Source: an uncultured Lentimicrobiaceae bacterium (lineage in GTDB: Bacteria > Bacteroidota > Bacteroidia > Bacteroidales > WCHB1-69). From it: a stretch of 64,000 nucleotides of DNA. How positions within the stretch are numbered: position 1 is the first letter of the stretch; each line of letters begins with the position of its first letter. The stretch lies in assembly GCA_964610025.1 (NCBI GenBank), contig CAZSTX010000001.1, forward strand, positions 117,209 through 181,208, given 5' to 3'. The notes below the pieces were generated by a model. The model made no database searches. It was not told the DNA's origin and saw only the letters and a program-made list of their open reading frames with translations. Both the position numbers and the translations under genes were made by a program. This document shows, piece by piece, positions 4,349 to 21,895 of this stretch.

Positions 4349-4395
4349 ATTATAAATAATTATTAATTAATAGTATAAAAAAATAAAATTATATT

Positions 4396-4608
4396 TTAAA
4401 ATAATTCTAATTGATTTTTGAGTACTCCGTTTTCATTGTTTTTTTTAAGTTCCATATATTTAAGATTTAAATCAATAGAATCTTTGATGAATTTATTTAC
4501 TGTTATATTGTTTTTTTTAGCACATTGCTCAATAGATTTTCTTTTTTCTGCCGAAACTTTAAAGGTGTAGTGGTAAGTCCATTTATTAGTTTTTTTATCT
4601 TTTTGCAT
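4396..4608 (-). CDS. small hypothetical protein, possible ribbon-helix-helix fold
   Basis: 70-aa basic ORF 4 nt downstream of lpxC-fabZ. KRKSIEQCAKKNNITVNKFIKDSI resembles CopG/RHH-type segments. Confidence 0.3.
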   Translation of the reverse strand: MQKDKKTNKWTYHYTFKVSAEKRKSIEQCAKKNNITVNKFIKDSIDLNLKYMELKKNNENGVLKNQLELF

Positions 4609-4612
4609 ATGT

Positions 4613-5995
4613 TTATCCTTTTGTTATTTGTGCTAAAAAATCGCCTTCTGCCACTACTTTCTGATTTACATATGCTTTTCCTTTCATATGTGCTAACCCA
4701 CGGCGTATAGGCTCTAATAAAATCATTTCGTAAATCAATGTGTCTCCTGGCGATACTTTAGAACGAAATTTTACCTTGTCCATACTTAAGAAAAAAGTAA
4801 GATAGTTTTCAGGATCAGGAACCTGATTAAGCACTAAAATACCACCTGTTTGAGCCATACCCTCCACAATTAAAACGCCGGGCATTACAGGTTCTTGTGG
4901 AAAATGACCCGTGAAAAATTCTTCGTTAATAGTAGCATTTTTAACACCAACAACACGATTTGCTGTCAGTTCTATTATTTTATCTACTAATAAAAAAGGG
5001 AAACGATGTGGGAGTTTTTCTTTAATTCCTATACTATTAAAAATAGGTGGTTTATTAACATCAAAAACAACTTTACTTGCTTCTGCTTTTATTTTACTTA
5101 TCATCATACGTGCAAAGGCTGTATTGGTAGCATGCCCAGGATATTTTGCTATAATATGTGCTTTTAAATTATAGCCTATTAAGTTTAAATCGCCAATTAG
5201 GTCTAATAATTTATGCCGCGCTACTTCGTTGTCAAAATGTAATTTTATGTTATTTAATACGCCTGTATTTTCAACTTTAATATCATGGCGATTAAAGAAA
5301 GTGGCAATTTGTTGTATTTCTTTCTCTTCTAAAATATGATTGACATATACAATGGCATTTTCAACATCGCCTCCTTTAATCATATTTGCATTGATAAGAG
5401 GCAATATTTCATGTAAAAAACAAAAAGTACGAGCAGGTGCTATTTCTGTAGCAAAATCTTTAATGTTATTTAATTCTGCATGTTGTACACCTAATACTTT
5501 TGTTTTGTAGTCTGTTAAAACAGAAACTTTAAAGTTTTCAGAAGGAATAGCTATGATTTCAATATCACTGTTAGGATTTTTCCAAGTGATAACTTCTTTT
5601 AACTCAAATATTTTTTTATCAGCATCTTGTTCTAAAAGACCTGCCTGCTGAAATATTTTGACATACTCTATAGAACTGCCATCTATAATAGGGATTTCTT
5701 CACCGTTTAATTCTATTAATACATTGTCAATTTCAAGCCCTGCAAGTGCAGCCATTACGTGTTCAATGGTTCTAACAGTAGCTCCTTCTTTATTGCTAAT
5801 TACAGTACCACGAGTAGTTTCTATTACCAATTCAGCAGAAGCTAATATAAGATTATTTTCTTCTAAATCAGTTCTTTTAAAAACAATTCCATGGTTAACG
5901 TCAGCGGGTTGAAAAGTAACAGTAACGGCTTTCCCATTGTGTAAGCCTTTACCTTTTAGACTACAAGATTTTTTTATTGTGTATTGCTTACTCAT
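4613..5995 (-). CDS. lpxC/fabZ: bifunctional UDP-3-O-acyl-GlcNAc deacetylase / 3-hydroxyacyl-ACP dehydratase
   Basis: 460 aa. LpxC N-terminal part (TVRTIEHVMAAL, HATN) is fused to a FabZ hot-dog C-terminal part (FTGHFPQEPVMPGVL), the fusion typical of Bacteroidota. Confidence 0.9.
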   Translation of the reverse strand: MSKQYTIKKSCSLKGKGLHNGKAVTVTFQPADVNHGIVFKRTDLEENNLILASAELVIETTRGTVISNKEGATVRTIEHVMAALAGLEIDNVLIELNGEEIPIIDGSSIEYVKIFQQAGLLEQDADKKIFELKEVITWKNPNSDIEIIAIPSENFKVSVLTDYKTKVLGVQHAELNNIKDFATEIAPARTFCFLHEILPLINANMIKGGDVENAIVYVNHILEEKEIQQIATFFNRHDIKVENTGVLNNIKLHFDNEVARHKLLDLIGDLNLIGYNLKAHIIAKYPGHATNTAFARMMISKIKAEASKVVFDVNKPPIFNSIGIKEKLPHRFPFLLVDKIIELTANRVVGVKNATINEEFFTGHFPQEPVMPGVLIVEGMAQTGGILVLNQVPDPENYLTFFLSMDKVKFRSKVSPGDTLIYEMILLEPIRRGLAHMKGKAYVNQKVVAEGDFLAQITKG

Positions 5996-6161
5996 ATTAA
6001 AATGATTATTATGTTAAACATTACAAAAGTATAAAAAAACACACTCGTTTTTCATTATCTTCTATAAATTAATAAAAAATATTAGAAAATCCGAATAATA
6101 ACTTCTAAAATAAGTGTTGAAAATCGTTATTTCTTATTAAAAAGGATAAAAAAAAATATAG

Positions 6162-6169
6162 TATTTTTG
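6162..6169 (+). promoter_or_regulatory. -7 promoter box TATTTTTG
   Basis: TAnnTTTG match 20 nt upstream of the hutH ATG. Confidence 0.4.
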
Positions 6170-6188
6170 CAAAAAAATATAAGATATA

Positions 6189-7691
6189 ATGAAAGAACAT
6201 AAGATATCAGATAAGCGTTTGAAATTAGCGACAGTAGATAAAATAATAAACGAAAATTATAAGTTAGCTTTGTCAGTTGAAGCAGTAAAAAAAATAGAAA
6301 AATGCCGCAATTATTTAGATGATAAAATAAAAAAACAAAAACGTCCTATTTATGGCATTACTACTGGTTTTGGCTCCTTATGTAATACTACTATTTCAGA
6401 AAATGAATTAGGAAAACTACAAGAAAATCTTATGGCTTCTCATGCTTGTGGAGTAGGAGATGAAGTGCCATTAGAGATTGTTCGTTTAATGATTTTATTG
6501 AAAATACAATCTTTGTCTTATGGACATTCTGGTGTGCAATTGTCTACAGTTCAACGATTAATAGATATATATAACAATGAAATCTATCCCATTGTGTACG
6601 AACAAGGTTCTTTGGGTGCATCGGGCGATTTAGTGCCTTTAGCACATCTTTGCTTACCTTTGATTAATTTAGGAGAAGTTTATTATAAAGGCGAAAAGTT
6701 AACGGGCAAAGAAATTAATGAAAAAATGAATTGGCAGCCTATTTCATTAAAATCAAAAGAAGGCTTGGCTTTATTAAATGGAACACAATTTATGTCTGCT
6801 TATTCCGTCTATATATTATTGAAAGCTAAAAGACTATCTTATGTTGCAGATTTGATAGGAAGTATTTCACTCGATGCTTTTAATGGTAGATTAGAACCTT
6901 TTTTAACAGAAGTACATATTATTAGACCACATTGGGGACAATTAGAAACAGCCAATAATATATTAAATTTTTTAGATGGTTCTGAAATTAGTTTGCAAGA
7001 TAAAGCACACGTACAAGACCCTTATTCTTTTAGATGTATGCCACAAGTGCATGGTGCTAGCAAAGATGCAATAAATTATGTTGAATTTGTTATAGAAACC
7101 GAAATTAATTCTGTTACTGATAATCCTACTATTTTTCCAGATGAAGATTTAGTGATTTCATCCGGTAATTTTCATGGACAGCCTATTGCCTTAGCGATAG
7201 ATTTTCTTGCTATTGCTTTAGCAGAATTAGGAAATATTTCAGAAAGAAGAACATATCAATTGATTGATGCTAAACGAGATTTGCCATCTTTTTTGGTTAA
7301 AAATCCAGGCTTAAATTCTGGTTTTATGATTCCTCAATATGCTGCTGCTTCTATTGTTAATCAAAATAAATTATTAGCAAATCCCTCTTCTACCGATTCT
7401 ATTGTGTCTTCACAAGGGCAAGAAGACCATGTTAGTATGGGAGCAAATGCAACAATTAAATGTTTGAAAATAGTTGAAAATTTAGAAAAAATATTTGGAA
7501 TAGAGTTTTTTAATGCTGCACAAGCTTTAGAATTTAGAAAACCTTTAAAAACTTCTCAAAAAATAGAAGAAATATTAATTGCGTATCGTGAAAATATTCC
7601 ATTTATCGAAAATGATACCACTATGTATGACAAAATGCAAAAAAGTATTGAGTTTATAAAAGATTTAGAAATGCTTTTTCGCTTCGAATAA
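6189..7691 (+). CDS. hutH: histidine ammonia-lyase
   Basis: 500 aa. MIO-forming ASG triad in GSLGASGDLVPLAH. The Ser-His selectivity pair in LMASHACGVG fits HAL rather than TAL/PAL. Confidence 0.85.
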   Translation: MKEHKISDKRLKLATVDKIINENYKLALSVEAVKKIEKCRNYLDDKIKKQKRPIYGITTGFGSLCNTTISENELGKLQENLMASHACGVGDEVPLEIVRLMILLKIQSLSYGHSGVQLSTVQRLIDIYNNEIYPIVYEQGSLGASGDLVPLAHLCLPLINLGEVYYKGEKLTGKEINEKMNWQPISLKSKEGLALLNGTQFMSAYSVYILLKAKRLSYVADLIGSISLDAFNGRLEPFLTEVHIIRPHWGQLETANNILNFLDGSEISLQDKAHVQDPYSFRCMPQVHGASKDAINYVEFVIETEINSVTDNPTIFPDEDLVISSGNFHGQPIALAIDFLAIALAELGNISERRTYQLIDAKRDLPSFLVKNPGLNSGFMIPQYAAASIVNQNKLLANPSSTDSIVSSQGQEDHVSMGANATIKCLKIVENLEKIFGIEFFNAAQALEFRKPLKTSQKIEEILIAYRENIPFIENDTTMYDKMQKSIEFIKDLEMLFRFE

Positions 7692-7774
7692 GCAACAAAA
7701 TGAAAATTATTTCCTTAATATACAATGAAATAAAAAAAAAATAAAAAAAAGTGTGTTTTTTGAAAAAAAAATTA

Positions 7775-7782
7775 TATTTTTG
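7775..7782 (+). promoter_or_regulatory. -7 promoter box TATTTTTG
   Basis: TAnnTTTG match upstream of the sigma-factor gene. Confidence 0.3.
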
Positions 7783-7868
7783 CGTCTACAAATACAAGGA
7801 GGATTTATATAGAAACAATTTTTATTTTTTGAGATTAAAAAAAAACGAAAATTAAACAAAAGTTTATT

Positions 7869-8462
7869 ATGAAGACTAAATTGTTTCAAAGCAGTGATGA
7901 AAATCTAGTTTCTCTTTATATTAACGGTCAAGAATCAGCTATAGAGATTTTAATTAAACGCTATCAACAAAAAATATTTTCTTATATTTTAATGGTTGTG
8001 CGAGATAAAGAAATTGCAGAAGATCTTTTTCAAGATACTTTTATAAAAGTAATCAATACTTTACGATTAGGAAATTATCGTGAAGAAGGAAAGTTTAATC
8101 AGTGGATTATGCGTATTACACGTAATCTAATTATTGATTATTTTCGTAAAAATCAGAAAATGTCTTTTGTAGATAATAATAATGAGAATGGTAGTTTTAT
8201 TGATAATTTTTCAGAACCTACTAATTCTATAGAACAAATAATGATAACAAATCAAATTCATGAGTCATTACGTTCTTTAATTACTCTTCTGCCTGAGAAA
8301 CAACAAGAAGTTTTAATGCTACGATTATATCAAGATATGAGTTTTAAAGAAATTGCTATTCAAACTAATGTAAGTATTAATACTGCTTTAGGACGTATGC
8401 GATACGCTATTTTGAATTTAAGAAAAATGGTGGAAGAAAATAATATAATTTTAACGCAATAA
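7869..8462 (+). CDS. RNA polymerase sigma-70 family (ECF-type) sigma factor
   Basis: 197 aa. Region 2 (DLFQDTFIKV ... WIMRITRNLIIDYFRK) and a region 4 HTH (MSFKEIAIQTNVSINTALGRMRYA). Confidence 0.8.
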   Translation: MKTKLFQSSDENLVSLYINGQESAIEILIKRYQQKIFSYILMVVRDKEIAEDLFQDTFIKVINTLRLGNYREEGKFNQWIMRITRNLIIDYFRKNQKMSFVDNNNENGSFIDNFSEPTNSIEQIMITNQIHESLRSLITLLPEKQQEVLMLRLYQDMSFKEIAIQTNVSINTALGRMRYAILNLRKMVEENNIILTQ

Positions 8463-8573
8463 TCTTCTGAAAAAACATTAAACTACTATATAGTTAAACT
8501 TTCGATATCCAATAAATAATAATTTTTTTTTTGAAAATATCTATAAATAATTGATTTATATAAAATAAAATTG

Positions 8574-8581
8574 TACTTTTG
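8574..8581 (+). promoter_or_regulatory. -7 promoter box TACTTTTG
   Basis: TAnnTTTG match 37 nt upstream of the rplS ATG. Confidence 0.4.
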
Positions 8582-8617
8582 CACGCAATATTTAAAAAAT
8601 CTTAATATTAAGAAATA

Positions 8618-8971
8618 ATGAAATCGGAATTAATAAAATTCGCTGAAGACCAATTGATTGAAAAGAAAAATCACCCTGAATTTAAAGCAGGAGATACCGT
8701 AACTGTAAACTATAGAATTGTTGAAGGAAGTAAAGAAAGAATCCAATCATACCAAGGAGTTGTTATTCAACGAGCTGGTACGGCGGCTACAGAAACATTT
8801 ACAGTTAGAAAAATATCTGGTGGTATTGGTGTCGAAAGAATATTTCCTGTTAATTCTCCTTTTATAGATAGTATTATTGTAAATAAAAGAGGAATAGTAA
8901 GAAGAGCAAGAATATTTTATTTAAGGGCATTAAGAGGTAAAAAAGCACGTATCAAAGAAAGAAGAAATTAA
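8618..8971 (+). CDS. rplS: 50S ribosomal protein L19
   Basis: 117 aa. [29 protein letters not shown] is typical of L19. Confidence 0.95.
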
Positions 8972-8996
8972 TTTTTTTTCTTAAATTATTATTATT

Positions 8997-9563
8997 ATGG
9001 CTACAACAGCAGATTTTAGAAATGGTTTATGTATCGAACTAAACGGAGAGCTTTGGAGTATTGCAGAGTTTTTGCATGTTAAACCAGGAAAAGGTGCTGC
9101 GTTTGTTCGTACTAAATTGAAAAATCTTCGAAATGGACGACAGTTAGAACATACTTTTCCTTCAGGAGTGAAAATAAATTTAGCAAGAGTAGAAAGACGA
9201 CCCTATCAATTTTTGTATAAAGAAGGTGCAACTAATTACCATTTTATGCACTCTGAAACATTCGAACAAATAGAAATTGAAGAAAGTTTAATCTCAAATT
9301 CAGGTTTATTAAAAGAAGGACAAGTAGTTGAAATAATGTATCATGTAGATACAGATTCACCTTTAACATGCGAACTACCTGCATTTGTTGACTTGCAAGT
9401 AACCTATACAGAACCAGGAGTGAAAGGCGATACTGCAACTAATGCCTTAAAAAAAGCAATTGTAGAAACAGGAGCGGAAGTAATGATACCTCTTTTTATT
9501 GAAGAAGGAGAAAAAATTAAAGTAGATACGCGTACAAATCGCTATTCGGAACGTGTCAAATAA
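8997..9563 (+). CDS. efp: elongation factor P
   Basis: 188 aa. [18 protein letters not shown] is the EF-P signature region. Confidence 0.95.
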
Positions 9564-9581
9564 ATAGATTGATAGAATATT

Positions 9582-10538
9582 ATGAAATTTAACAATCCAT
9601 TATCAACAGACGACTTACTGCAAATCATAGGCAATAATGTGAAAATTATTGGCGATAGAAATTTGAAAATTAGAGGTATTAACGAAATACATGGTGTTGA
9701 AGAAGGTGATATTACTTTTGTCGACCATCCTAAATATTATGAAAAAGCGCTTAAATGCAAAGCCGATTTTGTAATTATTGATATAGAGCCAGAAGATACG
9801 TTCGGAAAAACATTATTTATATCTGACGATCCTTTTAGAGATTATGTTAAAATTGTAAAACATTTTAGAATATTTATTCCACAAGATAGTTTTATTCATC
9901 AAGAAGCTGAAATAGGAGAAGGAACTGTCTTACAACCAGGTGTTTTTGTTGGACGTAATGTGAAAATTGGGAAAAATTGTATTATTCATTCTAACGTAAG
10001 CATTTATGACCATACTACTATTGGCGATAATGTTATTATTCAATCTAATAGTGTTATTGGTGGCGAAGCATTTTATTTTAAACGTCGCCCCGATTGCTGG
10101 GATAAATTAGAATCTTGTGGTAGTACGTATATAGGTGATAATGTAGAAATAGGTGCTTTATGTACTATCGATAAAGGCGTTTCGTCTGAAACTTACATTG
10201 GTAATGGTACAAAAATGGATAATCATATCCAAATAGGACACGACACAAGGATAGGAAAAAATGTGTTAATAGGAGCGCATTGTGCTATTGCTGGAGTGGT
10301 TGTTATTGAAGATAATTGCTTGATATGGTCTAAAGTATCTATTAATAAAGATTTAGTTGTAGCACGCGGCACTACTATTTTGGCTACCTCTGCCATTGCT
10401 AAAAGTACTCTGCCAAATCAAATACTTTTTGGAGCTCCTGCCATCGATTTTCGTAAAAAATGGAGAGAAATGGCTGCAGTACGCATGCTGCCCGATATTC
10501 TTGATGACTTAATAGAAGTAAAATCAAATATGAAATAA
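9582..10538 (+). CDS. lpxD: UDP-3-O-(3-hydroxyacyl)glucosamine N-acyltransferase
   Basis: 318 aa. LpxD N-terminal domain followed by hexapeptide (LbH) repeats, with a catalytic-type HIQIGHD segment. Confidence 0.85.
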   Translation: MKFNNPLSTDDLLQIIGNNVKIIGDRNLKIRGINEIHGVEEGDITFVDHPKYYEKALKCKADFVIIDIEPEDTFGKTLFISDDPFRDYVKIVKHFRIFIPQDSFIHQEAEIGEGTVLQPGVFVGRNVKIGKNCIIHSNVSIYDHTTIGDNVIIQSNSVIGGEAFYFKRRPDCWDKLESCGSTYIGDNVEIGALCTIDKGVSSETYIGNGTKMDNHIQIGHDTRIGKNVLIGAHCAIAGVVVIEDNCLIWSKVSINKDLVVARGTTILATSAIAKSTLPNQILFGAPAIDFRKKWREMAAVRMLPDILDDLIEVKSNMK

Positions 10539-11936: not shown

Positions 11937-12365
11937 ATGCGAGAAAGAATATTAAAAATTTTGGAAGACAAAAATTTAAATCAAGCAGAGTTTGCCGAAA
12001 TAATTGGAGTAAATCCTTCAAGTATTAGTCATATTATGAATGGTAGGGATAAATTTAGCCAAACAATTGCATCTAATACACTATTGAAATTCCCTGAAAT
12101 CAATCCTTTATGGTTTTTAAAAGGAGAAGGAGAAATGTATAAAAATAAAATAAGTAATGAATATTTAAAAAACGAAGAACAATCACGTATTGAAGGAGAA
12201 TCGAATATTCGCCCAACAAATTATACTGACACGACAATAAACGATGTTAGCGATTTAAATAAAAGCAAGCAGATGCCGCCTATTACTGATGCAAATAATA
12301 AAAAAATAGAAAAAATTGTTTTCTTTTATTCTAATCAGACATTTGAAGAATATTATCCAAAATAA
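11937..12365 (+). CDS. XRE/phage CI-like helix-turn-helix transcriptional regulator
   Basis: 142 aa. N-terminal HTH (LNQAEFAEIIGVNPSSISHIMNGR) followed by INPLWFLKGEGEM, a motif typical of CI-repressor-type HTH proteins in Bacteroidota. Confidence 0.7.
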   Translation: MRERILKILEDKNLNQAEFAEIIGVNPSSISHIMNGRDKFSQTIASNTLLKFPEINPLWFLKGEGEMYKNKISNEYLKNEEQSRIEGESNIRPTNYTDTTINDVSDLNKSKQMPPITDANNKKIEKIVFFYSNQTFEEYYPK

Positions 12366-12455
12366 TATTTATATAAAACTTTGTGTTAAATAGCATTTTA
12401 TTCTAAATTTTCTATTTATTGATAAAACTATATACATATTGTAAAAGTAAAAGTG

Positions 12456-14084: not shown

Positions 14085-14158
14085 GGCTCCGTAGTTCAGC
14101 TGAATAGAACGTCAGATTCCGGTTCTGAAAGTCAAGGGTTTGAATCCCTTCGGAGTCG
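14085..14158 (+). tRNA. tRNA-Arg (anticodon CCG)
   Basis: Hand-folded cloverleaf. Acceptor GGCTCCG/CGGAGTC (one G-U pair), D arm GTTC/GAAC, anticodon stem TCAGA/TCTGA with loop TTCCGGT, T arm AAGGG-TTTGAAT-CCCTT. 74 nt. Confidence 0.85.
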
Positions 14159-14173
14159 CTAATATTCATTAAA

Positions 14174-14725
14174 ATGACAGTTAGACATTCTTTTTTTAAT
14201 TCCATAGACGCTTCGTGGACATTATTTCTTGATAGAGATGGAGTGATAAACAAACGTATTCACAATGCTTATGTACGAAATGTTGAAGAGTTTGAATTGT
14301 TACCCAATAGTAAAATGGCATTTTCTATTTTTCGTCAACTATTTTCAACCATTATAATTGTAAGCAATCAGCAAGGAATAGGAAAAGGAATTATGACAGA
14401 AGATGATTTGCTAATAATTCATAATCATATGCAAAATGAACTGAATCATTGTATTGATAAAATATATTATGCCCCAGGATTAGAAGGCGAAAACAATATA
14501 TTAAGAAAGCCAAATATTGGTATGGCTTTGCAAGCAAAAAAAGATTTTCCAACAATTGATTTTGCAAAATCTATTATGGTAGGCGATACTTATAACGATA
14601 TTATTTTTGGTAAAAACCTTGGAATGAAAACAGTTTTAATAGCTGAAAATAAAAATGATATAGAAGCAGATGTGCAATTTAAATCTTTGTATTCCTTTGC
14701 ATTAAAACTTAAGAAAGTCGAATAA
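14174..14725 (+). CDS. gmhB: D-glycero-D-manno-heptose 1,7-bisphosphate phosphatase (HAD-IIIA)
   Basis: 183 aa. LFLDRDGVIN (DxDG motif), NQQGIG, RKPNIGM and MVGDTYNDI HAD motifs. Confidence 0.75.
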   Translation: MTVRHSFFNSIDASWTLFLDRDGVINKRIHNAYVRNVEEFELLPNSKMAFSIFRQLFSTIIIVSNQQGIGKGIMTEDDLLIIHNHMQNELNHCIDKIYYAPGLEGENNILRKPNIGMALQAKKDFPTIDFAKSIMVGDTYNDIIFGKNLGMKTVLIAENKNDIEADVQFKSLYSFALKLKKVE

Positions 14726-14797
14726 TTATTTGACTTTTTCTCCTTTATATAAATCGAACTGTTGAATGTTTTCTATTTGTTTTTGATAACTTAAATA
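14539..14797. repeat. direct repeat R, copy 1 (gmhB 3' end plus last 72 nt of the transglycosylase gene)
   Basis: Identical by eye to 17131-17389 (offset 2592). Confidence 0.9.
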
Positions 14798-14846
14798 GCT
14801 ACTCCTTACCAATCAAAAATCGTATCTATTTTATAAAAAAAATCAA

Positions 14847-15290
14847 ATGATTTACAAATTAAAAAAAACAAAATTTTTATTAGTGAGCGTATCTCTTTTT
14901 ATCTTCGGTTGTTCAAATAAAAATGACATTGATAATATTGTTTCTACCGAATATGATAGATGTAAGGAAAATACAAATTGTCTCATAGATTTTGCTCATT
15001 TAATGAATTTTGAGTGGGATACTATGTGTTATTATTCAGGAGCTAATTCATTAGAAGAAATTAACAAAGATTTAGGTTTTGAATTAAGAGATTTTACAGA
15101 TATTGGAGATCGAGTAATATTTTTTCACAAAGGGAAAATTATTTATCAAAAAGAATGGTTTTATAATCCAAGTGAACCGCCCAAAGGAATAATTTTTATG
15201 ACTGATTTAGATAAGTTTAGAATAAGTAAATCAAACGCAAAATTTGAAGCAAGAAAAGAAGGAAATGCTTTTTATTTAATAAAAATTTAA
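14847..15290 (+). CDS. lipoprotein, candidate orphan immunity protein
   Basis: 147 aa with lipobox LFIFGC. First gene of the insertion. No motif recognised, so the immunity role is inferred from context only. Confidence 0.4.
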   Translation: MIYKLKKTKFLLVSVSLFIFGCSNKNDIDNIVSTEYDRCKENTNCLIDFAHLMNFEWDTMCYYSGANSLEEINKDLGFELRDFTDIGDRVIFFHKGKIIYQKEWFYNPSEPPKGIIFMTDLDKFRISKSNAKFEARKEGNAFYLIKI

Positions 15291-15337
15291 GCAACGCAAC
15301 TAACGCCATAAAAAAAAACTTAATAAAAACAAAAAAC

Positions 15338-15463
15338 AACCAAAAAAAAGTATACATTTGCAAAATGAAAAACTACAACACACACACGGGAAGCACAAAA
15401 CCTCTACTCATCAGTAGAGCGTTAAAGCAGTGTGCTGTGGCAAGGCAAGGGATTGCCAGCAAA
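15338..15463 (+). repeat. toxin cassette head, copy 1 (27 nt upstream plus codons 1-33)
   Basis: About 88% identical (15 mismatches in 126 nt by hand count) to 17005-17130. Confidence 0.8.
15353..15360 (+). promoter_or_regulatory. -7 promoter box TACATTTG, 4 nt before the ATG
   Basis: TAnnTTTG match conserved in both head copies. Spacing implies a very short or absent leader. Confidence 0.4.
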
Positions 15464-16516
15464 ATAGGCAGCGGATTTGCCGATTCTATCAGTGGCGGAA
15501 TAGTTGATAATGCGTATAAAATTACAGTTATGCAAAATGAACTCAGCGAAGTAGCCAATGACTTGATAGACACTATCCATTGCAACTTTACGCAGATACG
15601 CTATTTGGGCGGAGATTCCTGCAAGTATGAGAGTGGTTTGTATTTTTATCATGGTAACCATTTGAGCAGCACCCAACTTATTACCGACATTAACGGCTCT
15701 GTAACGCAGGCGGTTCTTTACAATCCTTGGGGTACGATAATAAGCGAATATAGAGCAGATTGGATGTTAGATACCATACCGAGATATTTATTCAACGCTA
15801 AAGAAAAAGACGAAGAATCAGGGCTTTACTATTTTGAAGCACGTTACTATAGTTCAGATGCTGGAACTTTCCAAAGCCGAGACCCAAAATTTGAACAATA
15901 TTTTTGGTTGTCGCCCTATGCGTATTGTGCGAATAATCCGGTGGTTTTTGTAGATCCGGATGGGAGGAAGATAGTATTTGCAAAAGGAACGACTCCAGAA
16001 TTTAAAACTGCTTTTAAATCAGCTATACAACATTTGAATAAAAATAAAGTAGGGGGTATTGCTTCACATTTGGAAAAATCAAGAACTACATATTATATTG
16101 CTGAAACAACAGGCGAAGACACTCGTTTTAGCCCTTCAACACAGACAGTTTATTGGAATCCATCTCTTGGACTTGAAACAGATGAAGGAGTTACTTTATC
16201 CCCAACAACTGCATTAAATCACGAATTAGGACATGCTTTAATACTGGATTTATCTTTTGAGGCAGGCAAAATGAAAGAATATAATGCAGAACGAAATAGT
16301 GGTTCTGACCCTGATTATGGAACAAAAAATGAAAGATATGTAATTACTCGTATCGAACAAATAACGGCAAAGGCTTTGGGCGAAATAAAAGATGGTCAGG
16401 TTACACGAAAAAATCATGGAGGGATTTTTATTGAAACAGAAAGCCCCACTTCTAATCAACCAAAAATGCAACAAATTGAATTGCAACCAGTAGAAAATTT
16501 TTCAGAGCCAGAATAA
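15365..16516 (+). CDS. RHS repeat-associated core-end protein with C-terminal HExxH metallopeptidase toxin domain
   Basis: 383 aa. YFYHGNHLSSTQLITD, LYNPWG, GLYYFEARYYSSDAGTFQSRDP, SPYAYCANNPVVFVDPDG (15953-15964 = DPDG), then HELGH at 16220-16234. Confidence 0.8.
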   Translation: MKNYNTHTGSTKPLLISRALKQCAVARQGIASKIGSGFADSISGGIVDNAYKITVMQNELSEVANDLIDTIHCNFTQIRYLGGDSCKYESGLYFYHGNHLSSTQLITDINGSVTQAVLYNPWGTIISEYRADWMLDTIPRYLFNAKEKDEESGLYYFEARYYSSDAGTFQSRDPKFEQYFWLSPYAYCANNPVVFVDPDGRKIVFAKGTTPEFKTAFKSAIQHLNKNKVGGIASHLEKSRTTYYIAETTGEDTRFSPSTQTVYWNPSLGLETDEGVTLSPTTALNHELGHALILDLSFEAGKMKEYNAERNSGSDPDYGTKNERYVITRIEQITAKALGEIKDGQVTRKNHGGIFIETESPTSNQPKMQQIELQPVENFSEPE

Positions 16517-16530
16517 TAAAAAATGAAAAT

Positions 16531-16965
16531 ATGAAAAAGATAGGTGTTAATTTGATTTTGTTGATTTTACTGAAAGCATCAATTGGATTTTCTCAGAATA
16601 GTATTATTATTCGATATGTAGATACTGAAATTCAAACTCCTATACGTATAACGGGTTATCTTTTTAGTAGTGGGTGGAAATTTGAAGAATTTGAAGTAAA
16701 AGATACCATTTTTTACAAATTTATACAACAAAGAATAGATTCAGTCAAATATTGTCGTGATAATATTCAATGTCGTTGTCCAGATGTTAGGCAACAAATT
16801 ATTGTTACTAATGGAGAAGAATATGATATTCTTTCTTCTGATGGAAGTTTTGCGATGGAAATAAATGGGAAATGTATATTTTTTGATGAACGATTGCAAA
16901 AAGCCATAAATCGGGTTATTGAAACTTATGAGAATAAAAAAGAAGACAATCTACAAAGGAAATAA
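16531..16965 (+). CDS. exported small protein, candidate cognate immunity protein
   Basis: 144 aa. Signal peptide MKKIGVNLILLILLKASIGFSQ. Starts 15 nt after the toxin stop. Role inferred from position. Confidence 0.45.
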   Translation: MKKIGVNLILLILLKASIGFSQNSIIIRYVDTEIQTPIRITGYLFSSGWKFEEFEVKDTIFYKFIQQRIDSVKYCRDNIQCRCPDVRQQIIVTNGEEYDILSSDGSFAMEINGKCIFFDERLQKAINRVIETYENKKEDNLQRK

Positions 16966-17004
16966 CAGATATGTGGATTTTTATTGTATAAAATACCCCC
17001 CTAA

Positions 17005-17130
17005 AACCAAAAAAAATTATACATTTGCAAAATGAAAAACTACAGCACACACACGGGAAACACAAAACCTCTACCAAAGAGTAGGGCGGTAGAAAAGTGT
17101 GCTGCGGTAAGGCAAGGGATTGCCAGCAAG
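17005..17130 (+). repeat. toxin cassette head, copy 2
   Basis: Homologous to 15338-15463. Includes TACATTTG at 17020-17027 and an ATG at 17032. Confidence 0.8.
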
Positions 17131-17151
17131 AAAAGATTTTCCAACAATTGA
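17032..17151 (+). pseudogene. truncated second toxin module (head only, 39 codons)
   Basis: MKNYSTHTGNTKPLPKSRAVEKCAAVRQGIASK then runs out of frame into the gmhB repeat and stops at 17149-17151. Confidence 0.7.
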
Positions 17152-17317
17152 TTTTGCAAAATCTATTATGGTAGGCGATACTTATAACGATATTATTTTT
17201 GGTAAAAACCTTGGAATGAAAACAGTTTTAATAGCTGAAAATAAAAATGATATAGAAGCAGATGTGCAATTTAAATCTTTGTATTCCTTTGCATTAAAAC
17301 TTAAGAAAGTCGAATAA
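17131..17317 (+). pseudogene. duplicated 3' fragment of gmhB (last ~62 codons)
   Basis: Encodes KDFPTIDFAKSIMVGDTYNDI...KLKKVE, identical to the GmhB C-terminus. It lacks the catalytic DxD N-terminus. The ORF-track entry 17120-17317 uses a fortuitous TTG. Confidence 0.85.
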
Positions 17318-17389
17318 TTATTTGACTTTTTCTCCTTTATATAAATCGAACTGTTGAATGTTTTCTATTTGTTTTTGATAACTTAAATA
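17131..17389. repeat. direct repeat R, copy 2
   Basis: Identical by eye to 14539-14797. Confidence 0.9.
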
Positions 17390-18310
17390 AGCTATTTCAG
17401 GAATGCTTATCTCATAAGTTTTTGCACTTTTATTGTACAATGAGTTGCTGCGTAACCATGGGTTAAAGTCTTTGAGTGTTTTGTAGTCAATCCCTTGTAA
17501 AATAGCAAAATCAACAAGATTACTAATGCTTGTATCCACTTTTACTTTATGGCAAGGAATAGGCTGGTATAAGTCTTTGTATCTAAGTTTTATTCCATAT
17601 TTTTCAGGATTTTCGAAAAGTAGTTTAACGGCTAATATACGGTAAACATAGCGAGCAGTTTCCATAGTAAGCATTAAATTCCAATAAGAAGATGTTTTTT
17701 GTGATGCAACACTACGTTTAAAGCCACCATCGCCCATATTATAAGCTGCTGCTGCTGATATCCATGACCCATGTAAAGCGTAAGATTTTTTTAAATATTC
17801 GCAAGCTGCTTTGGTCGATTTTTCTAAATGATAACGCTCATCAACATCGTTATTGATTTCTAAACCAAAACTTTCGCCTGTAGCTTTTAAAAACTGCCAA
17901 AAACCTACTGCATTTGATGGCGATACTACATTGGCAAGCCCACTTTCTATTACAGCAAGGTACTTAAAATCGTTGGGAATATTGTTTTCTTTTAATATAG
18001 GTTCAATGATGGGAAAATAACGATTAGCGCGTTTAAAGTAAAGTAAAAGATTTGATTGCCAATAAACATTCACTAATATTTCTCTGTCTAATGCTTCTCT
18101 AACATCGTATTTATCTAATGGAATAAATTCGTTAGCTAAAAAAAGAGTATCGGGTAGAGGAGGAGAGTGCAAGATATACGACATAGTAAATGTTTGTTGA
18201 TAATCTTTGTCGTCTATTTTTTTTTCAACAGTTTGAGCTATCAATAATAATCCAATAATAACAGTAAAAAAAAGACTAATAATTACTATATAAATAGATT
18301 TTGTTTTCAT
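17318..18310 (-). CDS. lytic transglycosylase domain protein (MltD-like)
   Basis: 330 aa. N-terminal membrane anchor and the SLT motif AVIESGLANVVSPSNAVGFWQF ... AAYNMG. Confidence 0.8.
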   Translation of the reverse strand: MKTKSIYIVIISLFFTVIIGLLLIAQTVEKKIDDKDYQQTFTMSYILHSPPLPDTLFLANEFIPLDKYDVREALDREILVNVYWQSNLLLYFKRANRYFPIIEPILKENNIPNDFKYLAVIESGLANVVSPSNAVGFWQFLKATGESFGLEINNDVDERYHLEKSTKAACEYLKKSYALHGSWISAAAAYNMGDGGFKRSVASQKTSSYWNLMLTMETARYVYRILAVKLLFENPEKYGIKLRYKDLYQPIPCHKVKVDTSISNLVDFAILQGIDYKTLKDFNPWLRSNSLYNKSAKTYEISIPEIAYLSYQKQIENIQQFDLYKGEKVK

Positions 18311-20071: not shown

Positions 20072-21379
20072 TTAAATAATAGAATTATGAGTTATTATTT
20101 TTCCTTTTAAGGTGTCAGAATTTATAAAGTCAAGCAATTTAACTGTTTGTATAGAATTGATAAGATTTTCTTCACTTTTTATAGCTACTTTTATATAATT
20201 ATCAGTAAATCCAATTATTTGATTATTTGATGTTTTCGATTCAAATAAAACGCTGTGAGTGCTGTCGATGTTTTCTAAATAAAATTGGTGTTTCTTTTCT
20301 TGCGATAATGCGATAAGTTTTTGAGTGCGTTCGTTTTTTATAGCATTAGGTAATTGCTCTGCTAAATGATAAGCTAAACTTTTTGGACGTTTTGAATAAG
20401 GAAAAACATGCAAATAGCTGATGGGTAAATTTTTAATAAAATGATAAGTTTCCATAAAATCTTCTTCACTTTCGCTTGGGAAACCTGCAATAACATCAAT
20501 AGCAATACAAGCATTGGGCATTAATTTCTTGATAGTCATTATTTTTTTTAGAAAAAAATCTGTATTGTAGCGTCGTTTCATTTTTTTTAAAATTGTGTTG
20601 CTACCCGATTGTAAGGGAATGTGAAAATGAGGAAGTATTTTTTTGCTTTCTGCTGTTAGCTTAATTATGTCATCGGTTAACAGATTAGGTTCAATAGAAG
20701 AAATACGAAGACGTTCTAAATCAGTTATTTTTATTATTTGTTGCAAAAGATCATAAAAATTTTCGCCTTCTTGACTTCTGAAATCACCTATATTGACTCC
20801 TGTTAGCACAATTTCTTTTATATTATGGGCTAAAATGTTTTTTACATTTTCTATTACATTCTCAATCGTATCGCTACGACTATTACCACGAGCATAAGGG
20901 ATAGTACAATAACTACAAAAATAATCACAACCGTCTTGTATTTTCAAAAACGAACGTGTGCGTTCATGTAGCGAATAAGCTGAAAAAAAAGATTTTTTAT
21001 TTTCTATAGACGATAAAGGTAAGTCGTTGTGTGGAGTATGAAATAACTCTTCTATTTTATCTATTATTTGATTTTTATTATTGCTTCCTAAAACGATATT
21101 TGCTTCTTTATTATTGATTAAAGACGTTGAACTAAGCGAAGAAAAACAGCCAATAAAGGCTATTTTCGATTGTGGATGATGCTTTTTGATAGAACGAGCA
21201 TAGTAAAGGCATTTTTTTTCGGCTTCAGCAGTAACAGCACAAGTATTAATAATATAGATATCAGCTACTTGGTCAAAAGGGACCATATTATAACCTTTTG
21301 CCAAAAGTTTTCTTTCAATACTGGCACTTTCACTAAAATTTAATTTACAGCCTAAAGTTTTGATAGCAAAGCTATTCAC
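20072..21379 (-). CDS. mtaB: tRNA (t6A37) methylthiotransferase, radical SAM
   Basis: 435 aa. MTTase N-terminal domain (KTLGCKLN), CDYFCSYC radical-SAM cluster, and a TRAM-like C-terminus. Confidence 0.85.
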   Translation of the reverse strand: MNSFAIKTLGCKLNFSESASIERKLLAKGYNMVPFDQVADIYIINTCAVTAEAEKKCLYYARSIKKHHPQSKIAFIGCFSSLSSTSLINNKEANIVLGSNNKNQIIDKIEELFHTPHNDLPLSSIENKKSFFSAYSLHERTRSFLKIQDGCDYFCSYCTIPYARGNSRSDTIENVIENVKNILAHNIKEIVLTGVNIGDFRSQEGENFYDLLQQIIKITDLERLRISSIEPNLLTDDIIKLTAESKKILPHFHIPLQSGSNTILKKMKRRYNTDFFLKKIMTIKKLMPNACIAIDVIAGFPSESEEDFMETYHFIKNLPISYLHVFPYSKRPKSLAYHLAEQLPNAIKNERTQKLIALSQEKKHQFYLENIDSTHSVLFESKTSNNQIIGFTDNYIKVAIKSEENLINSIQTVKLLDFINSDTLKGKIITHNSII

Positions 21380-21478
21380 AATGTATGGATATTATTTTTT
21401 TATTGCTGCAAAAGTAATAAAAATAGTTGTTCATTCTTTCTTTCTAATATTGTAATTTATTTGGTGTTAGTCGATAAT

Positions 21479-21895
21479 TTACTTTTTACTTAATTTAAAA
21501 TCGATGATTTTTGTAACTTTACCTGCATACCATTTTCCCGATGCACCAATAAAATCTTCTTTTTCTATGCTAAATTCTTTTATACTCTCCTTAAAGTAGC
21601 CTCCATTAGATTCACCATCAATATCTTCTGCTTTGATGCTGTAATCTGTTATTGCAGGATTGATAAAATAAGTTTTTTCATACTCGCCTTTATTATTGGT
21701 AAATAAGGTGTCGTAAATTTCGTTTTCTCCGTGTATGATAATTTGAACTTTATTAATAGCTTGGAGATTGCTGTCTGTTACCTTTCCTTCTATATGCAAC
21801 TCGGCGTAAGGTTTCTCTTTTTCAATAATAGGGAGTTCGTCATTACAAGCAATGAAAATAAGTCCACAAAAAGCACATAAAATAATATTTTTCAT
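21479..21895 (-). CDS. hypothetical lipoprotein (carboxypeptidase-regulatory-like fold possible)
   Basis: 138 aa with lipobox FIAC. LHIEGKVTDSNLQAINKVQIIIHGE resembles CarbopepD_reg-like beta-sandwich segments. Confidence 0.35.
   Translation of the reverse strand: MKNIILCAFCGLIFIACNDELPIIEKEKPYAELHIEGKVTDSNLQAINKVQIIIHGENEIYDTLFTNNKGEYEKTYFINPAITDYSIKAEDIDGESNGGYFKESIKEFSIEKEDFIGASGKWYAGKVTKIIDFKLSKK

Follow-up and report, generated by a model that had tools for sequence, protein, structure and literature searches.

An Rhs orphan-array fragment bracketed by a perfect 259-bp direct repeat between two abutting convergent genes of an uncultured Bacteroidales bacterium

Introduction

How can a toxin-immunity cassette come to lie between two convergent genes whose stop codons touch and leave both of them whole? 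The question is raised by a locus in a 64-kb stretch of contig CAZSTX010000001.1 (64,000 nt, hereafter the window) from an AT-rich uncultured Bacteroidales bacterium (29.6% G+C in the window), where 2.33 kb of DNA with the content of an Rhs toxin-immunity array stands between a gmhB-like phosphatase gene and an mltD-like lytic transglycosylase gene and is flanked by two identical direct copies of a 259-nt sequence, here called R. A first-pass annotation of the sequence had described this R-insert-R arrangement and left open whether a circular DNA had integrated by a single crossover or a repair event had duplicated the site. In the analysis presented here, the explanation held with moderate confidence is a real chromosomal insertion, in which a 2.33-kb fragment of an Rhs orphan array, probably acquired horizontally, entered through two illegitimate, recombinase-independent joints. 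The evidence for this explanation is given first, followed by the alternatives, the related arrays and the likely function of the inserted genes.

A perfect repeat at a site that is closed in relatives

Compared base by base at an offset of 2592, the two copies of R (Table 1) agree at 259 of 259 positions in one unbroken run with no mismatch, which reproduces what the first-pass annotation had read. The self-comparison of the window that it had proposed recovers the same pair, reported by BLASTN as 275 nt with one gap and extended by a repeat search to 279 nt at 98%; leftward of R a weaker similarity continues for another 20 nt (14 matches), and rightward the letters GCTA recur past a 1-nt gap. 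The only repeats of at least 60 nt in the window are the R pair and two 125-nt toxin heads inside the insert, and inverted repeats of at least 60 nt were found neither anywhere in the window nor bracketing the insert. Dispersed near-perfect repeats of R's size were also rare in a megablast self-scan of 184 related loci (about 2 Mb).

R joins the final 187 nt of the gmhB-like gene to the final 72 nt of the convergent SLT/MltD-like gene, the two stop codons being adjacent with zero spacer, a composition that had been proposed before and is confirmed by the gene coordinates. The further claim that gmhB is made whole by copy 1 and mltD by copy 2 holds as well, since the products are as long as, or one residue shorter than, their sister-species counterparts: the gmhB product is 76% identical to a protein of 184 aa and the MltD-like protein 82% identical to one of 330 aa. 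The hairpin that spans the abutting stop codons could be a bidirectional terminator, to judge from its predicted fold, and it was duplicated along with R, so that the 3' context of each flanking gene is preserved and one copy lies behind the insert.

Table 1. Coordinates of the features at the insertion locus (positions within the window).
Feature	Position	Strand	Description
tRNA-Arg(CCG)	14085-14159	+	Found by ARAGORN; outside R, context only
gmhB-like HAD-IIIA phosphatase gene	14174-14725	+	Intact, 183 aa; TIGR01656/TIGR01662 above cutoff, GmhB equivalogs below cutoff
Repeat R, copy 1	14539-14797		259 nt; gmhB 3' end plus dead 72-nt mltD 3' tail (14726-14797, minus sense)
Hairpin over abutting stop codons	14712-14739; duplicate 17304-17331		12 bp, -10 kcal/mol, z = -2.7 (strand folding)
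Left-junction stretch	14798-14857	+	About 60 nt without identifiable source; supplies the first lipoprotein codons
Candidate orphan immunity gene	14847-15290	+	147-aa lipoprotein, lipobox IFGC; family position downstream of DUF6973 toxins
Head 1	15338-15462	+	Cassette 5' module: putative -7 box TACATTTG, ATG, first 33 codons
Rhs orphan toxin gene	15365-16516	+	383 aa; end of Rhs/YD shell at residues ~30-200, HExxH zincin-like domain at 201-383
Candidate cognate immunity gene	16531-16965	+	144 aa, signal peptide; starts 14 nt past the toxin stop
Head 2	17005-17130	+	Putative promoter box and opening 33 codons of another toxin gene, truncated at J2
Repeat R, copy 2	17131-17389		gmhB tail, dead (17131-17317), and final 72 nt of mltD, functional
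SLT-domain lytic transglycosylase gene, MltD-like	17318-18310	-	Intact, 330 aa; PF01464 at 1e-19

In relatives the order spoU-omp-gmhB><mltD-abcF is kept, with stop codons that abut or overlap, and the junction between gmhB and the transglycosylase gene, whose comparison across related genomes had been suggested by the first-pass annotation, is empty in seven loci (L085, L169, L170, L002, L084, L003 and L004). The three sister-species loci (L085, L169 and L170) show the order HTH-spoU-omp-gmhB><mltD-abcF with stops overlapping by 4 nt and no insert, and the junction is likewise closed in three more distant lineages (L002/L084, L003 and L004). In a four-way DNA alignment the sister sequence is colinear with the window through copy 1 when followed from gmhB, and through copy 2 when followed from mltD. 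Because the seven relative loci lack the insert, the comparison indicates that the tight, spacer-free junction is ancestral and that the R-insert-R structure is derived, a lineage-specific gain.

Closer relatives were sought in several collections. The proteins of the host are singletons in a database of 5.8 billion protein clusters and lie on one 194-kb contig; a gmhB search of these clusters returned only that contig and the sister species at 76%. Scans of GTDB genomes and JGI metagenomes with MltD gave 82% identity at best and no conspecific, and an exact 26-mer across the stop-stop junction had no match in metagenome contigs, so that no conspecific sequence was present in any collection searched. 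The nearest relatives thus stand at amino-acid identities of 82% for MltD, 76% for GmhB and 94% for ABC-F. In the closest GTDB relative by MltD (L001, 82%), the contig ends 3 nt past the mltD stop (5580-5613), at the gmhB/mltD junction itself; variation or a repeat at this place in the population of that relative may have broken the assembly, or the coincidence may be due to chance.

A fragment of an Rhs orphan array

The four parts that had been described for the 2.33 kb between the R copies, a lipoprotein gene, a gene with an Rhs core and an HExxH motif, a signal-peptide gene and a truncated head, were found again among the open reading frames (ORFs) and their domain matches. Because an orphan immunity gene stands first and a head cut after 33 codons stands last, the insert reads as a sub-fragment of an orphan array, composed of immunity gene n-1, toxin n, immunity gene n and the start of toxin n+1, with both of its ends cutting the array at arbitrary positions. 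A foreign origin is suggested by three features, namely that the lipoprotein cassette occurs at 97% identity in other metagenomes, that the toxin gene has 38% G+C as against 29.6% in the window, and that the exact toxin protein was found on one contig only.

Homologues of the lipoprotein always lie 1-8 nt downstream of toxins with an Rhs core and a DUF6973 tip (L164-L168), and since no such toxin precedes it here, the gene is regarded as an orphan immunity gene; the 12 codons upstream of it do not resemble the C-termini of DUF6973 toxins. In two Logan contigs of other samples (L164/L165) the DNA of its cassette recurs at 97% identity, beside a different toxin context. This homology begins only at about 14858-14862, and the flanks to the left differ. 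The preceding left-junction stretch gives the lipoprotein a new N-terminus (MIYKL...) with a signal peptide that is still valid, and it could be filler DNA from the joining or plain allelic divergence.

The toxin matches TIGR03696 (RHS repeat-associated core) above cutoff, at 2.3e-18 over residues 119-200, and its residues 73-201 align with the extreme shell ends of TccC3, YenC2, Tse5 and Rhs proteins of type VI secretion systems (T6SS) in the PDB. The core closes with NNPVVFVDPDGR at residues 190-201, a PxxxxDPxG demarcation motif followed by the variable tip, in which D197 and G200 are invariant among 32 toxin homologues. The tip of about 180 residues carries an HExxH motif with invariant E287 and H290 and a weak match to Peptidase_M91, and its AlphaFold2 model has a predicted local distance difference test score (pLDDT) above 90 for residues 201-370; a fold search with the model returned no significant match in the PDB, only weak matches to zincins and the Rhs core. 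The homologues form a large family of "RHS repeat-associated" proteins of 250-600 aa, with a common N-terminal part (45%) and tips that differ, among them M91, M23, JAB-like, DUF6973 and glucosaminidase. The closest relative, P0002, is 54% identical over 90% of the query.

The 144-aa protein encoded behind the toxin has no Pfam or NCBIfam match, and ORFs with 40% identity to it lie directly behind 58-60%-identical toxins in two related arrays (L172 and L173), a gene order that makes it a candidate for the cognate immunity protein.

The two heads are 89% identical over 125 nt (15338-15462 against 17005-17129), close to the 88% estimated in the first pass. Head 2 leaves a residual ORF of 39 codons (17032-17151), which continues into the gmhB tail in another reading frame. 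Both heads hold the motif TAnnTTTGCAAAA, at 15353 and 17020, and the sequence TACATTTGCAAAATG (15353-15365 and 17020-17032), which we take to be a -7 box of the Bacteroidetes type (TAnnTTTG), 4 nt ahead of the ATG. The heads may thus act as promoters, and the distance of 4 nt would imply a very short or leaderless transcript for each cassette. A scan for sigma-70 promoters and intrinsic terminators, a method unsuited to Bacteroidetes, gave no excess over shuffled sequence. The motif TACATTTGCAAAATG also occurs at 6162, upstream of a hutH-like gene. Within the first 20 codons of the toxin head there is a 7-bp hairpin, CTCTACTCATCAGTAGAG (15402-15419), which the terminator scan flagged on the minus strand and which head 2 carries in a related but imperfect version.

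The junctions and the probable course of the insertion

The insert meets the first copy of R between 14797 and 14798 (J1) and the second between 17130 and 17131 (J2). At J2 the head 2 side reads ...GGGATTGCCAGCAAG up to the junction and AAAAGATTTTCC beyond it, gmhB at the same boundary reads ...GGCTTTGCAAGCAAA followed by AAAAGATTTTCC, and head 1 at the equivalent point continues ...AGCAAAATAGGCAGC. Head 2 and gmhB agree at 14 of 20 positions directly before the junction (17111-17130 against 14519-14538), and a 12-nt stretch, TTGCnAGCAAnA, agrees across the R boundary at 10 of 12. Binomial and empirical probabilities for at least 13 matches in 20 are about 1e-3, and we read this patch as the signature of an illegitimate, microhomology-guided joint.

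The favoured explanation starts from a fragment that would have been broken out of an Rhs orphan toxin-immunity array at arbitrary positions and acquired horizontally. Its left end would have been joined to the chromosome at 14797 and its right end at 14539, 259 bp apart and in "overlapping" order, and joints in this order place the 259 bp between them on both sides of the insert. The two joints could have been made by replicative template switching, in which copying moved to the donor and then resumed behind the place it had left, in the manner of fork stalling and template switching (FoSTeS) or of break-induced replication mediated by microhomology (MMBIR); alternatively, the ends of the incoming fragment may have joined staggered positions on sister chromosomes at a replication fork, or a tandem duplication may have been followed by a deletion.

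The neatness of the outcome needs no special process. Because gmhB and mltD abut with zero spacer, only a product that bears the duplication leaves both genes whole, and the duplication is therefore most simply explained as what selection let through, assuming that both genes matter for fitness. Since selection can account for the result, dedicated machinery is not needed. Moreover, no target duplication was found at the other Rhs-orphan loci (L081, L082, L166, L167 and L171-L173), which supports a one-off event and argues against a dedicated mechanism; the megablast self-scan of all 184 loci likewise yielded no long target duplication. One candidate from the search was rejected: in L175 a 119-nt core piece of a full-length Rhs gene encoding 2304 aa is repeated downstream of an immunity gene (4630-4748 and 7607-7725; 98%), which is an Rhs-core remnant and probably the product of C-terminal displacement. 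The perfect repeats agree with a recent event, but as a clock 259 nt are weak, and the two copies could be held identical by gene conversion.

Several points weigh against this explanation or narrow it. Convincing microhomology is present at only one of the two junctions: J1, for which the donor is missing, offers only AAATA(A)GCTA, which is not significant. The patch at J2 may instead have been left by a later deletion that cut back an originally larger insertion. The donor array was not found (best toxin 54%, best lipoprotein cassette 97% with other flanks), so that "templated" and "foreign" are presumptions. The three routes cannot be told apart by sequence alone, and one assembly without reads cannot prove that both copies of R lie in one molecule.

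Alternative explanations

Among the alternatives, Campbell-type integration fares best, although we regard it as unlikely. A non-replicating circle carrying R and the 2.33-kb cassette would have recombined with the chromosomal R in one RecA-dependent crossover, and an integrant formed by a single crossover would have exactly this topology, the insert being flanked by two identical direct copies of R. Loop-out would regenerate such a circle, so that the structure could spread among conspecifics, and Campbell recombination is a plausible route for passing the finished unit between them. However, the circle itself would need the same two illegitimate joints, J1 and J2, which makes one event more, and since its R is identical to that of the host, its source would have to be the same strain or one nearly identical to it. 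Neither a replication nor a mobilisation gene is present in the insert, which has no plasmid or phage match; matches to viral contigs are confined to Rhs core ends, and the cassette stands beside R in no relative. Of the two possibilities that the first-pass annotation had left side by side, the evidence consequently leans towards a duplication-generating repair event, as judged from the microhomology at J2, the arbitrary cuts and the lack of a replicon signature, while the Campbell integration is the less parsimonious.

A smaller share of the probability, and a low one, falls to an assembly artefact, in which a graph loop at R was threaded into the chromosome and the true state is an empty site together with a 2,592-bp circle, or a mixture of strains. 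A perfect repeat of 259 nt exceeds the k-mers of short-read assembly and is resolved by pairing or coverage, the source is uncultured and represented by one 194-kb contig, and the L001 contig breaks 3 nt past the mltD stop. Both J1 and J2 must nevertheless exist in the reads, the graph otherwise leads only to a 2.59-kb circle, which lacks a replication gene and could not persist at assembly-level coverage, and the window shows no other long repeat or sign of collapse.

Hardly credible is dedicated mobility, in which a recombinase or transposase acting in trans would recognise the head, in an integron-like manner or like that of recombinase-associated acquired interbacterial defence (rAID) clusters, use a head-like pseudo-site in gmhB and leave a long staggered duplication: the 14/20 similarity of head and gmhB at J2 can be read as a pseudo-att site, and one related array (L173) adjoins a tyrosine recombinase gene, but site-specific integration would put sequence of the head at each junction, whereas J1 lacks it, no recombinase was found in the window, other arrays show no comparable duplication, and a 259-bp target duplication is, to our knowledge, far beyond the products of known recombinases and transposases. 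Site-specific integration at the head-like pseudo-site was rejected on the same ground, the absence of head-derived sequence at J1.

Classical mobile elements were discarded as well. Domain scans of the ORFs in the window found no integrase, transposase or recombinase, no terminal inverted repeats were found at the insert, and these results bear out the corresponding statements of the first-pass annotation, including its view that an R-insert-R structure with both genes restored, a 259-nt duplication and no transposase does not fit classical transposition. An insertion sequence or DDE transposon was rejected because of the missing transposase, the missing bracketing inverted repeat and the 259-nt duplication, and an integrase island or prophage because there is no recombinase, R is 259 nt of host coding sequence and the tRNA gene, correctly dismissed as the target beforehand, lies outside R. 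The locus looks like a tidy one-off recombination scar rather than a new kind of mobile element, and the evidence for a new system is weak.

Related arrays and genomic surroundings

Relatives of the inserted genes occur in more complete settings. In L171 an orphan follows a giant SpvB/TcdB_midN/FG-GAP/RHS protein (>4519 aa) and its immunity gene, the classic layout of a main gene with orphans. Along L171:1-12403 the giant protein has an M91-like tip and is followed by an immunity gene, the orphan P0029 and a second immunity gene, and a 110-nt sequence is repeated behind each immunity gene (9509-9612 and 12294-12403; 84%). In L081 and L172 several orphans and small downstream genes form arrays with repeated heads and a truncated terminal head. 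The array of L172 (1718-7219) comprises three orphan toxin/immunity pairs bracketed by 376-nt head repeats (91%), and the ORF of its terminal truncated head overlaps with the 3' end of a convergent gene for an SLT/LysM lytic transglycosylase; the parallel to head 2 beside mltD in the window is probably coincidental. In L173 a related orphan toxin/immunity array (4374-10302) directly adjoins a divergent tyrosine recombinase (PF00589), an arrangement reminiscent of recombinase-associated immunity clusters.

Two assemblies, L081 (9283-12256) and L082 (1-2974), share 2,974 nt of the end of an Rhs-orphan array at 99.8%, made up of a toxin, an ORF of 76 aa, a DUF559 gene and a pair of truncated heads, and then diverge into different housekeeping flanks, with RecJ in one and DHquinase/FtsZ in the other. 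Either the array was relocated or the assemblies are chimeric at the repeats.

The window itself holds no other Rhs core. The surroundings of the insertion consist of housekeeping genes (pgk, uvrB, lpxC-fabZ, lpxD, hutH, efp, spoU, mtaB and an RND pump). At 20072-21895 the gene for an MtaB-type radical-SAM methylthiotransferase adjoins one for a "radical SAM-associated putative lipoprotein" (TIGR04134), a pairing that is conserved.

Predicted function and significance

The islet would add to its host a self-promoted metallopeptidase toxin of the Rhs-tip type together with a secreted immunity protein, and the lipoprotein is predicted to confer periplasm-directed immunity to a Rhs toxin of the DUF6973 type. 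Since a lipobox and a signal peptide mark both immunity proteins for export, their targets are likely to be found in the envelope or the periplasm. The 383-aa toxin possesses no more than the final section of an Rhs shell and cannot encapsulate its own tip; its delivery would need recombination onto, or cooperation with, a full-length Rhs shell elsewhere (C-terminal displacement), or another route.

Perfect 259-bp repeats are good substrates for RecA. RecA-dependent loop-out should hence occur at the copies of R, and segregants that lose the two immunity genes would be counter-selected where kin or competitors deploy the toxins. Loop-out and counter-selection through loss of immunity are predictions that follow from the structure, as is a donor array elsewhere. 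A bolder reading, to which we give little credence, would see in R-insert-R a minimal enzyme-free mobile module that leaves as a 2.59-kb circle by RecA loop-out, re-enters at R in conspecifics by Campbell recombination and is retained through enforcement by its immunity genes. If it were true, polymorphic toxin-immunity cassettes would have a general and overlooked way into gene-dense chromosomes, even between overlapping convergent genes.

Taken as the insertion that we favour, the locus provides a clean natural case of a toxin-immunity cassette that reached a chromosome without integrase or transposase, and it illustrates how a long target duplication allows insertion without intergenic space, between genes whose stop codons touch. 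It also documents Rhs orphan cassettes away from a main rhs gene, with promoter-like boxes of their own, in an uncultured Bacteroidales bacterium of the digester/gut type. If such events are recurrent, programs that detect islands by their integrases, tRNAs and short att sites would systematically miss them.

Comparison with known systems

Islands that target tRNA genes, and elements such as e14 and phage 21 in icd, enter at the 3' end of a gene by means of an integrase and carry a replacement 3' end. The locus described here resembles e14/phage 21-type elements in that a direct duplication of a gene 3' end flanks the insert and the target gene stays functional. It differs from them in lacking an integrase, in that the duplicate is a perfect host copy rather than a diverged, element-borne version and spans the ends of two genes, and in junctions that are not att-like.

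A second comparison is with the interbacterial defence clusters of gut Bacteroidales. As with their orphan immunity genes, the lipoprotein gene is kept without a toxin of the DUF6973 type, and protection would be expected against the toxin of other cells. Unlike those clusters, the islet holds a single orphan gene rather than an array, lacks a recombinase or mobile element and has the orphan travel alongside a full pair of toxin and immunity genes. PMC12247911 deals with such orphan genes and with the acquired defence clusters of these bacteria.

Rhs orphan modules and arrays formed by C-terminal displacement have been described in Enterobacteriaceae and Snodgrassella alvi, according to the passages of PMC5727410 that cite this work (Jackson 2009; Koskiniemi 2014). 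The fragment shares with such modules a truncated rhs gene that keeps the core end (TIGR03696, ...DPDGR), a variable tip and an adjacent immunity gene, and with the arrays the repeated 5' heads common to the cassettes and a truncated remnant at the end. Its relatives in L171 stand, as orphans do, behind a giant main Rhs/Tc-like gene, and, like the S. alvi orphans in the parts of PMC5727410 concerned with them, it has its own start codon and a probable promoter. Unlike known orphan modules, the fragment is not preceded by a main rhs gene, which is absent from the window, but is isolated between two housekeeping genes, with a 259-bp target duplication around it, in an AT-rich, uncultured Bacteroidales host.

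The closest mechanistic parallels are insertions attributed to FoSTeS/MMBIR and double illegitimate recombination. A human chromosomal insertion combined duplication of the insertion site with microhomology at the junctions, and replication-based mechanisms were discussed for it (PMC5120786), and double illegitimate recombination of DNA taken up in natural transformation was described in Acinetobacter (Hulter & Wackernagel 2008), according to the passage of 10.1101/2025.01.24.634696 that cites it as ref 27. With these cases the locus shares an ectopic segment, short or imperfect homology at a junction (convincing at J2 only), a duplicated insertion site and the lack of a recombinase. They come mostly from eukaryotes or laboratory selections, whereas the present one is natural, bacterial and of kilobase scale, and its duplication rescues two convergent genes with zero spacer between them.

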